Virus record (IMG/VR): IMGVR_UViG_3300049811_000251
Coordinates: 1 to 24,359 of that record
Direction: 5' to 3' (one strand)
DNA: 24,359 nt
From: a virus
The notes beneath the pieces were generated by a model. That model was given only the letters and a program-made list of their open reading frames with translations. It had not been told where the DNA came from and did not search any database. The stretch's first letter is position 1, and each line of letters starts with the position of its first letter. A program made the position numbers and the translations under genes. This document shows positions 3,398-13,917 of the stretch, piece after piece.

Positions 3398-3438
3398 TCG
3401 AGTTCTCCGCGTGTGTGTGGGTATCGCCAGTACCCCCG

Positions 3439-3467
3439 AGTTTAATCGGGGGCTTCTTGCGTGTCAA
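3439..3467 (-). promoter_or_regulatory. sigma70-type promoter TTGACA-N17-TAAACT, near copy of 618-646
   Basis: TTGACACGCAAG...CCGATTAAACTCGGGGG shared; hairpin CCCCCGA-GTTTAA-TCGGGGG. Confidence 0.8.
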
Positions 3468-3471
3468 GTGG

Positions 3472-3711
3472 TCACAGCTCAAAATATTGCAAGAGGAGGT
3501 GCTGCGTTCCTTCGATCTTAAACGCAAGCTTGAGAGCCTGTGCGTGCTCCACTTCCACCATGATCTTGCGTGCCATTTCCAAGCACGCATGAGCAAGGGC
3601 TGCTCCATCCTGATCCTCGATGAGCTTGTTCACCTTGCTCGGCCCCGCCATCGGGGCAAGGATTTGCTGAAGACGCTCAGCCTTGTTCGCCAAGTCGATG
3701 CTGACTTTCAC
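3472..3711 (-). CDS. hypothetical protein
   Basis: ORF track 3472..3744; GTG 3711 with AGGAG SD preferred because ATG 3744 lies in hairpin 3731-3757. Confidence 0.65.
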   Translation of the reverse strand: MKVSIDLANKAERLQQILAPMAGPSKVNKLIEDQDGAALAHACLEMARKIMVEVEHAQALKLAFKIEGTQHLLLQYFEL

Positions 3712-11739: not shown

Positions 11740-11785
11740 CTTCAAAGTCCAATTAGTTGGAGGAAATTAGTAAACTTTTAGTCAG

Positions 11786-11859
11786 TGACCCCAGTGGGAC
11801 TCGAACCCACGACCTACGGATTAAAAGTCCGTTGCTCTAACCATCTGAGCTACGGGGTC
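11786..11859 (-). tRNA. tRNA-Lys(UUU)
   Basis: GACCCCG/TGGGGTC acceptor, ACGGA-CTTTTAA-TCCGT anticodon arm. Confidence 0.95.
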
Positions 11860-12016: not shown

Positions 12017-12068
12017 GTTTTCCCCTAAATAGGGACGGAAGGATTTGAACCTTCGACCTACGGATTAG

Positions 12069-12688
12069 CTTCCCACACTACATTACTGTAGCCATACTTT
12101 CGTATGTTGTAGGCTGGACTATATCTTCACCATTTCAGGTGGACGGCGTATAGTCTCTACGCATCCCGTTGTCTGCGGTTTGCTCGGAATTGTCCATAAC
12201 ATCACTAAGGTTTATAGCCCAGTGATATTCTTGGATGTTTTCCGAAATAGCCATCTCCAGTTTATGTGTTTCTCGGCTGAGTTGTAAAGCTCTCGATAAA
12301 GAACCTCTGCAACTACGACTACAAGTAGTGTAACGTTGCGGAGGCTTAACTAAATGAGTTTGCCTTCGTTCTCTTATGAAAACATCACCACACCAAGGAC
12401 ACTTAAGAATTACAAACAGTTTCATCTTATGTCCGTGCATTCTTGCGTGTTCTGATTTACTCATTACACGCAAATTGCATAAACTGTTGTTTTTCTTATC
12501 ATCATTGATGTGATGAACAACTTCATCCGCATTAAGAAGCCTTCCAAGGTGATTTTCTACAACAACTCTGTGATGTAGAACATAACCATTCTTAGTACAA
12601 AACGGATGTTCTGGTACTAAGGCATAGTTATAAACCCCCTTGCTGACAATCTTCTTAATGTTCCACATAAACGCTCCAATTAAGCACA
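12069..12688 (-). mobile_element. group I intron (620 nt) in tRNA-Arg at 34/35, encoding HNH endonuclease
   Basis: R CGTAGAGACTA, S AAGATATAGTCC, P3 GATGGC/GCCGTC, P8 CACC-TGAAAT-GGTG; exon ends in U, intron ends in G. Confidence 0.9.
12135..12668 (-). CDS. intron-encoded HNH homing endonuclease with C-terminal Zn finger
   Basis: HRVVVE.HLGR.L...EVVHHINDDKKNNSLCNL; CPWC...CSRSC; GGAG SD before ATG 12668. Confidence 0.9.
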   Translation of the reverse strand: MWNIKKIVSKGVYNYALVPEHPFCTKNGYVLHHRVVVENHLGRLLNADEVVHHINDDKKNNSLCNLRVMSKSEHARMHGHKMKLFVILKCPWCGDVFIRERRQTHLVKPPQRYTTCSRSCRGSLSRALQLSRETHKLEMAISENIQEYHWAINLSDVMDNSEQTADNGMRRDYTPST

Positions 12689-12712
12689 AAGTCCGTTGCT
12701 CTATCCGCTGAG

Positions 12713-12907
12713 CTACGCCCCCAAATTAGTCTCCTTTCGTTGCTCTATCCGCTGAGCTACGCCCCTAATCTTGAGCCACTTAATAAGTTCATAGTAATCT
12801 GAAAAGATAGGAGAAGAGGCAACGAACCTCCCATCTTTCTTTTCGCCTGTCGAAAGGAAAGTACCTACTTTCCCGTTAGAAGCCGTACACTGATAACAGG
12901 TAATCAT
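12713..12907 (-). CDS. hypothetical protein
   Basis: 64 aa, ATGA coupling; C-terminus encoded by the duplicated tRNA fragment. Confidence 0.55.
   Translation of the reverse strand: MITCYQCTASNGKVGTFLSTGEKKDGRFVASSPIFSDYYELIKWLKIRGVAQRIEQRKETNLGA
12738..12766 (-). repeat. duplicated 5' fragment of tRNA-Arg
   Basis: 28 nt (12738-12765) identical to 12694-12721. Confidence 0.9.
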
Positions 12908-13200: not shown

Positions 13201-13252
13201 ATCAGTAGCCCCGGCGGGACTCGAACCCGCACGCCTTGCGGCAAGGGATTTT

Positions 13253-13878
13253 CTTTACCACATCACTTTCGTATTGTGGTCTGGACTTTCTCTTGACCAT
13301 TTCAGGTCCGCCGTGTAAAGTCTCTACACTCACTGATTTCTCAGTTAGCTCGGGGTTTCCATGACGAAAGGATTCTCCGAATTAGCGGCGTCCACTTAAC
13401 AAGTTACTATTCCTTGTTAAGGCTCTTAAAGGATGTGAGACTAGGTAACGGTGATTTATGATGGCTTTTTATTCCAGCACACTTTTTAGAGCAATACGGA
13501 CCTGTGTTGCTTTTATTCCTATTCCTTTCTCGTGCAATTCTGCTAATTTTTGCACCAGAAAGAAAGAAGAATTCTTTACAAACAGGGCACTGAAATTCCT
13601 GAAGGGGGTATCTCAAAGCATCTATCTTGCAATGAGATCGTCTTTCAAGAATCCTTAGATTGCTCAAATCATCGTTAGTAAAGTCTCCGTCAATATGATC
13701 TACAGTTTCCCACGCTTCCAAGTATCTGCCTAAATGAACTTCAACCAGATACTTTGGATACGATACAGTTGTTCTTTTTCCGTTCTTATACAGAAGACAG
13801 ACGTGCTTACGCCCATCTTTTCGTAAATACGGACCACGAACAACTGCGTCACTGTAAATCACTTTACATCCTTTCTCA
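13253..13878 (-). mobile_element. group I intron (626 nt, IC3-like) in tRNA-Leu(UAA) with HNH ORF in L1
   Basis: IGS GAGCC, P2 CTTAACAAG/CTTGTTAAG, P3 CGCCG/CGGCG, R GTAGAGACTTT, S AAGAGAAAGTCC, terminal G. Confidence 0.92.
13407..13862 (-). CDS. intron-encoded HNH homing endonuclease with C-terminal Zn finger
   Basis: HLGRYL..WETVDHIDGDFTNDDLSNL; CPVC...YCSKKC; GTG 13862 with AAGGA SD (track ATG 13898 lies in the tRNA exon). Confidence 0.9.
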   Translation of the reverse strand: MIYSDAVVRGPYLRKDGRKHVCLLYKNGKRTTVSYPKYLVEVHLGRYLEAWETVDHIDGDFTNDDLSNLRILERRSHCKIDALRYPLQEFQCPVCKEFFFLSGAKISRIARERNRNKSNTGPYCSKKCAGIKSHHKSPLPSLTSFKSLNKE

Positions 13879-13917
13879 AAGTCCCTTGTGTCTGCCATTC
13901 CACCACAGGGCCTGAAT

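Follow-up and report, generated by a model that had tools for sequence, protein, structure and literature searches.

A nuclease gene sharing bases with a predicted group I ribozyme in a phage tRNA-Arg(UCU) gene

Can the gene of a homing endonuclease be read through the core of a group I intron and, if so, is the overlap a device that decides between nuclease and tRNA? A tRNA gene in the window, the 24,359-nt stretch analysed here, raises this question. The window forms the opening 24 kb of an IMG/VR virus record of 102 kb (IMGVR_UViG_3300049811_000251; completeness estimate 78%). A preliminary description had proposed a group I intron at position 34/35 of tRNA-Arg(UCU), with an HNH reading frame that runs on into the ribozyme as part of a built-in switch. 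Taken as a whole, the locus is best explained, in our opinion with high probability, as a group I intron with an HNH gene in its L2 loop, capable of splicing and mobility, in which translation and splicing exclude each other and whose overlap originated by core creep, the extension of ORF ends into the ribozyme core.

Two halves of a tRNA gene

On the minus strand of the window is an array of small ORFs together with tRNA genes, for which ARAGORN and Rfam give Thr, Val, Lys, Ser and Met. At 12030-12722, neither ARAGORN nor the Rfam tRNA model called a tRNA in the unspliced gene. The minus strand there (12722..12030) holds a tRNA-Arg(UCU) gene that is split between U34 and C35:

12689..12722, minus strand: exon 1 of tRNA-Arg(UCU), nucleotides 1-34, GGGGGCG...ACGGACUU, with C32, U33 and U34 at its end
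12069..12688, minus strand: group I intron of 620 nt with the omega-G (12069) as its last base, recognized by Rfam RF00028 and covariation
12030..12068, minus strand: exon 2 of tRNA-Arg(UCU), from C35 to the discriminator A73, CUAAUCCGU...CCCUA; CCA is not encoded

Exon 1 reads GGGGGCG-UA-GCUC-AGCGGAUA-GAGC-A-ACGGA-CUU, a perfect tRNA 5' half, and exon 2 is the matching 3' half (CUAA-UCCGU-AGGUC-GAAGG-UUCAAAU-CCUUC-CGUCCCU-A). Once joined, they make a 73-nt tRNA that ARAGORN calls tRNA-Arg(tct), with A20 present in the D loop (AGCGGAUA). The exon-terminal U, the terminal G of the intron, the anticodon UCU and A20, from which the preliminary description had identified the tRNA, are thus all in place on this strand.

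The predicted junction, ACGGACUU/CUAAUCCGU, agrees with intron-less phage tRNA-Arg(UCU) genes. This junction, the one forecast in the preliminary description, exists uninterrupted elsewhere: viral contig L008 contains ACGGACUUCUAAUCCGU, with 43 bases identical to the joined exons. A 28-nt stretch of exon 1 covering the D arm and anticodon stem occurs in eight intron-less viral tRNA-Arg(UCU) genes (...ACGGACTTCTAATCCG(T/C)AGG), that of L008 among them. Wherever the 5' exon could be matched, in the window and 28 related loci, removing the intron after ...CTT and between its terminal G and CTAA gave tRNA-Arg(tct) (29 of 29 cases). The 5' exon was unmatched in six loci, namely four near-identical viral contigs (whose 3' exon is common with L021), one Anaerolineae and one Saprospiraceae, the last of which is cut by its end; in one further locus the contig ends ahead of the 3' splice site. 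We rejected a 5' splice site one base downstream, which would make an 8-nt anticodon loop and leave an intron base +1 that is not conserved.

Upstream of the gene, a partial tandem copy of tRNA-Arg nucleotides 2-29 lies at 12738..12768 on the minus strand (31 nt, 97% identity, 44-nt spacing). It is absent from 27 related loci and is possibly a repair scar.

Ribozyme, guide sequence and nuclease gene

The Infernal-type group I model search that the preliminary description had proposed as a check returned RF00028 (Intron_gpI) at 12312..12091 on the minus strand, with 47.8 bits; the E-value was 7.2e-11 when 1 kb was searched and 1.7e-12 for the full 102-kb record. The match was found at relaxed thresholds and lies 2.2 bits under the curated gathering cut-off of 50. 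Even at E-values up to 10, Rfam gave no intron in the related contigs L011, L012 and L019. Since the introns of L011 and L012 are readable in the sequence, we regard the miss in these two as a sensitivity failure of the model.

Ten distinct phage precursors were aligned, and P1-P9 and the anticodon stem were written onto the alignment. Standard pairs fill 93.4% of the 654 cells formed by 66 proposed pairs in the ten phage introns, against 37-42% in slid controls, and none of 500 shuffles matched any observed pairing measure; pairing in the ribozyme is therefore far beyond chance. Compensatory changes on both sides affect 31 of the 66 pairs. P3 is 100% paired, with covariation at four of its six pairs; the figures are 98% for P4, 95% for P5, 97% for P6 and 100% for both P8 and the inner hairpin of P9. 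P7 (GACUAU/AUAGUC) is invariant in the ten relatives and therefore supplies no covariation evidence. The U34.G pair at the 5' splice site is found in seven of the ten aligned sequences, the aligner having displaced it by one column in the other three, and the omega-G is invariant. The window intron has every core helix intact, keeps the conserved J-regions, omega-G and U.G pair, and lacks none of the invariant family columns. P3, P7, P8 and the R and S elements, noticed initially, can all be read, along with P4, P5 and P6, and the Rfam match, the covariation and the tRNA call on the joined exons bear out that tRNA-Arg(UCU) is interrupted by a group I intron at 34/35. Rfam also draws a local 'P2' hairpin at 12312..12285, which we rejected because covariation favours a long-range P2 enclosing the ORF. 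The elements are, from the 5' end of the intron:

12674..12679, minus strand: internal guide sequence UUGGAG, 3' strand of P1 plus P10, whose GGAG doubles as Shine-Dalgarno sequence
12664..12672, minus strand: P2 5' strand, GUUUAUGUG, which holds the HNH start codon (12668..12666)
12135..12668, minus strand: HNH_3 homing-endonuclease ORF of 177 amino acids plus UGA, with its ATG at 12668, in the P2 loop (L2)
12260..12268, minus strand: P2 3' strand, CACAUAAAC, codons 134-137, immediately ahead of P3, where the dual-use stretch begins
12142..12255, minus strand: catalytic core P3-P4-P5-P5'-P4'-P6-J6/7-P7-P3', wholly inside the ORF, from helix pairing in the alignment
12160..12149, minus strand: R element, GUAGAGACUAUA
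minus strand: S element, AAGAUAUAGUCC
12128..12141, minus strand: P8 hairpin CACC-UGAAAU-GGUG, whose loop holds the ORF stop UGA (12137..12135)
12069..12122, minus strand: P7 3' strand (AUAGUC), P9 with two inner hairpins and the terminal AAG, from the covariation alignment

The two strands of P2, 12672..12664 and 12268..12260, pair perfectly, and relatives compensate: L035 has a GUG start with CAC opposite, and L023 pairs CUUGCUUUG with CAGAGCAAG. The GGAG of the guide is the sole Shine-Dalgarno sequence, 5 nt ahead of the AUG, and this GGAGC-N4-AUG layout, together with the P2 pairing, is conserved with covariation among relatives. With the Shine-Dalgarno sequence in the guide and the AUG in P2, the initiation region is therefore built from P1 and P2. 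Sequence and covariation thus show a layout with the nuclease gene in a long-range P2 loop, the guide as its Shine-Dalgarno sequence and its AUG in the P2 5' strand. The family consensus guide, UAGGAG, is complementary to the ligated loop CUU/CUA; relative to it, the UUGGAG of the window has one mismatch, to U36 in P10, and the window P1 contains three G.U pairs. Local folding of isolated P1 regions gave a stability no greater than that of shuffled sequence, so occlusion of the Shine-Dalgarno sequence would depend on the whole tertiary fold.

The protein matches Pfam PF13392 (HNH_3) with 46.3 bits (E 3.4e-12; gathering cut-off 24.8). Residues H52, H53, N61, N65, H74, H78, C90, C93, C116 and C120, which include the catalytic His/Asn and the Zn-ribbon Cys, are invariant in 66 sequences and all present in the window, where the nuclease is intact. 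An AF2 model built on the 66-sequence alignment has a mean pLDDT of 89, and 85 over residues 131-150, 74 over residues 151-160 and 50-62 beyond; confidence over the overlapped segment may partly mirror conservation imposed by the RNA. A PDB sequence search gave no significant match to the protein and Foldseek no PDB match with E below 0.001, the top fold match being a weak one to I-HmuI (1u3e; E 0.12, TM 0.26). We discarded an alternative start, TTG at 12689 (184 amino acids), which extends across the splice site and lacks a Shine-Dalgarno sequence; the family N-terminus is MWNIKK after GGAG.

Reading frame and ribozyme on shared bases

At E below 1e-5 the nuclease has a family of at least 372 protein clusters, most of them 50-60% identical and unannotated. 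Searches with the protein and with the exact 24-base core pattern TAGAGACTATACGC-N6-CCTGAAATGG led to 17 viral contigs and to 17 bacterial genomes in GTDB. A database search for the insertion site, another check proposed at the outset, found the intron always at 34/35 of tRNA-Arg(UCU) where the 5' exon could be matched (14 viral and 15 bacterial cases, 14 of the latter being Bacteroidota MAGs). The bacterial copies are ORF-less or have a PD-(D/E)XK gene in place of HNH. The ORF-less ones (262-269 nt) have the guide UAGGAGCC, a short local P2 hairpin and then GUGGA...P3, and that hairpin sits at the exact position of the ORF in the phage introns. In the Bacteroidota members a PDDEXK_5 gene (E 2e-32), whose product weakly matches PDB 2ost, lies in another loop further 3', which indicates a presumably independent invasion. 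Blastn against GenBank phages gave tRNA-sized matches only, apart from a 90-nt match to the core in one uncultured phage of 484 kb, and the family is essentially absent from cultured phages. A search with the neighbouring 89-amino-acid ORF found no close relative of this phage without the intron.

A second intron lies nearby in the window, in tRNA-Leu(UAA) (13912..13206). It also has an HNH ORF, which stops ahead of P3; its core can be aligned with that of the Arg intron, and a tree of poor resolution puts it together with the phage Arg introns. By eye, the tRNA-Leu(UAA) introns of Haliscomenobacter and Parabeggiatoa have a like build.

How deep is the overlap in the Arg intron? The preliminary description put it at more than 100 nt; we measured 134 nt (12268..12135), from the P2 3' strand to the stop. 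These last 134 nt of the ORF are also P2', P3, P4, P5, P4', P6, J6/7, P7, P3' and half of P8. The frame does run through P3-P7, as first noticed, and ends ...ACG CCG UCC ACC UGA within the P8 loop.

We surveyed motifs and stops in the best 120 of the at least 372 homologous clusters. The motif A[IVL]S.N, the translation of P3-J3/4-P4, occurs in 116 of the 120; with slightly relaxed motifs, AIS.N and DN.E.T (P5'-J5/4-P4'-P6) stand in one frame in 110, separated by a P5 spacer of 8 to 14 codons. The frame through P3-P6 is thus kept in 110 of 120 clusters, and past DN.E.T the frames diverge. Stops among the relatives lie in the P6 loop, J6/7, the P8 loop and the P7 3' strand: the P6 loop accounts for 58 clusters, the UAG of GUAGAGAC for 28, the P8-loop UGA for 13 and positions beyond P8 for 8. 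The P8-loop type seen in the window arises after a 1-nt deletion in P6. Codon-position entropy has a coding signature, highest at the third position, over the HNH and Zn-ribbon part; the signature is absent over P5'-P8.

The idea of core creep, like that of translation and splicing working against each other, has been put forward before (Edgell, Chalamcharla and Belfort 2011, PMC3073962), and the ORF-intron overlaps tabulated in that work range from 0 to 81 nt. Here the ORF lies in a peripheral loop, L2, its ends reach core helices and the length of the extension varies across the 120 clusters. Because stop positions vary, the P8-loop stop is not a conserved design. The data fit a 3' overlap that would have arisen by core creep, the variable stops matching the prediction of PMC3073962. 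On our reading, the codons over P2'-P5 (the first 25 or so overlapped) appear from the protein model to have been taken into the protein fold, and we read the tail encoded by P4'-P8, P8-loop stop included, as lineage-specific drift, incidental rather than a designed switch.

What would such an element do? The Arg intron would be related to the tRNA-Leu(UAA)-type introns of bacteria. From the architecture, the guide UUGGAG would pair first with exon C32-U33-U34, which puts U34.G at the cleavage site, and next with C35 in P10; as in group I introns generally, guanosine attack and exon ligation at the omega-G would release a normal 73-nt tRNA-Arg(UCU). Judging from its family, the HNH_3 nuclease would attack, by cutting or nicking, the intron-less tRNA-Arg(UCU) genes of co-infecting phages, into which the intron would be copied by repair; the intron-less genes in L002-L009 are candidate substrates, and the window holds a near-identical tRNA-Lys(UUU) gene. 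The folded ribozyme would hide the initiation region and a translating ribosome would melt the core, so that each transcript would be either translated or spliced. Since the Shine-Dalgarno sequence is the guide and the AUG lies in P2, this physical exclusivity is, if anything, stronger than first described. The P2 5' strand and the Shine-Dalgarno sequence are transcribed some 400 nt ahead of their partners and the core, which makes a short co-transcriptional translation the most economical model: most likely, nascent RNA would be briefly translated before the P2 3' strand and the core exist, and then fold, shut off translation and splice. Shut-off by folding and splicing would keep nuclease levels low. 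We offer, as a tentative and rather doubtful extension, that about 75 nt of the core (P2' to P5') are dual-coding, selected both as helices and as a folded C-terminal module; that 'translate once, then fold, shut off, splice' is forced by this arrangement; that phages and Bacteroidota exchange the intron; and that the nuclease may hit intron-less tRNA-Arg genes of the host.

Could the overlap instead have been selected for regulation, with ribosomes reading through P3-P8 to decide between nuclease and tRNA? The Shine-Dalgarno sequence in P1, the AUG in P2 and the 134 nt of core within the ORF would suit a dedicated switch, and so would the frame retained through P3-P6 in 110 of 120 clusters and the need of td splicing for delayed I-TevI translation, as cited in PMC3073962. 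However, the stops of close relatives differ and use all three frames, as expected of neutral creep. Moreover, the HNH ORF of the neighbouring tRNA-Leu(UAA) intron ends before P3 and the bacterial relatives have no HNH ORF, so the ribozyme does not need the overlap. We thus consider a dedicated switch unlikely. Of the built-in switch in the preliminary description, the layout that would make translation and splicing mutually exclusive stands (Shine-Dalgarno sequence in the guide, AUG in P2); the stop in the P8 loop, however, is not conserved among relatives.

It is also conceivable that the element is dead: an intron that no longer self-splices, a tRNA-Arg pseudogene and an HNH gene surviving as a free-standing cassette in the tRNA array. 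The intact core helices, J-regions, omega-G, U.G pair and invariant columns speak against this, as does the absence of any second tRNA-Arg(UCU) gene in the window, and we regard it as very improbable despite an Rfam score under the gathering cut-off, a weak P1 and P10 and the partial duplicate of the 5' exon upstream. Some organellar LAGLIDADG maturases bind their own intron RNA and assist its folding. That the core-encoded C-terminal segment does likewise could be argued from its conservation in frame and predicted fold, but ORF-less and PD-(D/E)XK-carrying relatives have the same core and we know of no HNH maturase; such a dual role seems extremely unlikely. We continue to prefer a group I intron whose L2 houses an HNH gene that overlaps the core by creep.

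Known introns and the place of this family

Classic bacterial and plastid group I introns of the tRNA anticodon loop (IC3 type) are found in Leu(UAA), fMet, Ile(CAU, Azoarcus) and Arg(CCU, Agrobacterium) and are mostly ORF-less. They resemble the present intron in being small ribozymes in the anticodon loop, and tRNA-Leu(UAA) is interrupted exactly as here, after U34 with exon CUU. Here, however, a phage carries the intron, the interrupted gene is tRNA-Arg(UCU) with insertion at 34/35, and an HNH gene occupies L2; we agree with the preliminary description that this site lies outside the classic set. Among phage enzymes, I-HmuI and I-BasI are HNH nicking endonucleases of Bacillus phage DNA-polymerase introns. 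They are likewise intron-encoded, elongated and modular, whereas the window enzyme would be aimed at a tRNA gene, its ORF lies in L2 rather than P8, and the fold match is weak.

In two further systems an ORF also overlaps the ribozyme. The Synechocystis PCC 6803 tRNA-fMet intron carries the gene of I-Ssp6803I, a PD-(D/E)XK enzyme, near its 5' end, with a P1/P2 overlap of 61 nt (Table 1 of PMC3073962). Like the window, it combines a group I intron in a tRNA gene with a homing endonuclease gene overlapping P1/P2, and its enzyme class is that of the PDDEXK_5 gene in the Bacteroidota members of our family. In contrast, the window enzyme is HNH_3 and its gene overlaps the ribozyme at both ends, far longer at the 3' side (134 nt, through P8). 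The td intron of T4 with I-TevI also has an ORF in a peripheral loop reaching core helices, a ribosome binding site sequestered by RNA structure, and antagonism between translation and splicing. The host gene of the window, being a tRNA, is untranslated and brings no upstream ribosome, unlike td, and the Shine-Dalgarno sequence is the guide itself. The overlap of 134 nt compares with 20 nt in I-TevI, and none in the table of PMC3073962 exceeds 81 nt.

Putative group I introns in tRNA-Arg-TCT as well as in tRNA-Leu-TAA of Beggiatoa BOGUAY and Thiomargarita nelsonii are mentioned by Flood et al. (2016, PMC4853749, citing MacGregor et al. 2013). As far as that mention goes, the same tRNA gene is interrupted as in the window, and tRNA-Leu-TAA is interrupted too in the same genomes. 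We found a homologous tRNA-Arg intron in two Parabeggiatoa genomes, with a core 72-74% identical to that of the Haliscomenobacter intron; a coarse tree places it amid the bacterial introns of the 34/35 site. Its site is 36/37: the 5' exon ends in ...CCUUCU, the 3' exon is AAGCCGA, and the guide AAUUGGA is shifted accordingly. It thus differs from the window intron in being ORF-less, at 36/37 and chromosomal. The preliminary description knew of no Arg(UCU) case at 34/35. We also found none published at that site, but tRNA-Arg-TCT has already been reported interrupted (PMC4853749), so the gene target is in the literature. The cyanobacterial 'tRNA-Arg group I introns' of PMC5733544 measure 22-49 nt, far too short for group I ribozymes, and were set aside.

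When Hausner, Hafez and Edgell reviewed the field (2014, PMC3984707), all phage introns then known were in protein-coding genes, despite the many tRNA genes of phages. Our search of the literature after that review found no report of a phage tRNA group I intron. As far as we could find, the 34/35 site, the carriage by phages and the arrangement with HNH in L2 are new to the literature. Our verdict, from comparison of sequences, is that the locus is most probably a group I intron, mobile and housed in a phage tRNA gene, with a non-classic site and an unusually deep, partly selected overlap of nuclease and ribozyme.

To judge by the nuclease clusters, which number at least 372, and by the 14 viral contigs in which the exact core pattern confirmed the intron, phage tRNA genes are a common home of introns. 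Since tRNA finders and Rfam thresholds miss these introns, phage tRNA-Arg(UCU) and tRNA-Leu(UAA) genes are under-annotated. The HNH_3 nuclease could serve as a site-specific enzyme directed at a sequence in a tRNA anticodon arm. The family is a natural, sequence-rich system for asking how a protein gene and a ribozyme share bases, one in which three forms of a single ribozyme (ORF-less, PD-(D/E)XK-carrying and HNH-carrying) can be compared, together with a homologue two bases away in the same anticodon loop.

A second intron in tRNA-Leu(UAA)

The window carries a second group I intron, related to that of tRNA-Arg(UCU), which splits a leucine tRNA gene and has an HNH_3 gene of its own:
13206-13912, minus strand: group I intron that splits tRNA-Leu(UAA)
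13898..13407, minus strand: HNH_3 gene of this intron

Insertion is after U34: the upstream exon ends in AAGGGACUU and the 3' exon, which has a long variable arm, reads AAAAUCCCUU. The Rfam search returned no match for this intron (13206-13912). The HNH_3 proteins of the leucine and arginine introns share 33% identity; however, the leucine ORF ends ahead of the core helix P3, unlike its arginine counterpart.

Sequences resembling tRNA-Arg(UCU)

Two further elements of the window resemble parts of tRNA-Arg:
11785-11859: tRNA-Lys(UUU)
12738-12768: tandem copy of tRNA-Arg nucleotides 2-29 (31 nucleotides, 97% identity)

The sequence AGAGCAACGGACUU[U/C]UAAUCCGUAGGUCG is common to tRNA-Lys(UUU) and spliced tRNA-Arg(UCU). 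Over the presumed homing site the two tRNAs differ at nucleotide 35 only, and the nuclease may or may not tell them apart. The tandem copy lies 44 nucleotides upstream of the real tRNA-Arg gene, is followed by AAAGGAG, and was found in none of 27 related loci. It may be a scar from the repair of nuclease cleavage.

Related introns in bacteria and other phages

The ribozyme of the arginine intron also interrupts chromosomal tRNA-Arg(UCU) at 34/35 in 14 MAGs of Bacteroidota, plus another from Saprospiraceae. These are among the bacterial loci L038-L054, which come from GTDB genomes, mainly Saprospiraceae, Haliscomenobacter, Cyclobacteriaceae, Cytophagales and Chitinophagales. The intron takes three forms:
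262-269 nucleotides: ORF-less
628-654 nucleotides: with a PDDEXK_5 endonuclease gene inside, whose stop is the UAG of GUAGAGAC
351-355 nucleotides: decayed

Two contigs have other elements beside their intron-bearing tRNA-Arg. In L011 (1524-2332), just upstream of that gene, a tRNA match of 45 bits spans 113 nucleotides, more than an ordinary tRNA does, and a GIY-YIG-like ORF comes after it; this may be another interrupted tRNA. In L012 a skipping-rope RNA (RF02924, 49.7 bits) at 3421-3501 adjoins the intron-bearing tRNA-Arg within the phage tRNA array.

In two Parabeggiatoa loci, L175 and L176, a group I intron with a high score (92 bits) interrupts what from its sequence looks like an IscU/NifU-type scaffold gene. 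ORF-less homologues of the arginine intron occur in tRNA-Arg(UCU) of the same genus:
G002:C232:2452-2824 (L181): Parabeggiatoa intron
G001:C127:3945-4315 (L182): Parabeggiatoa intron

This intron, of about 305 nucleotides, sits at 36/37 rather than 34/35, and its guide sequence is shifted to match. The intron family thus uses two sites within the same anticodon loop.
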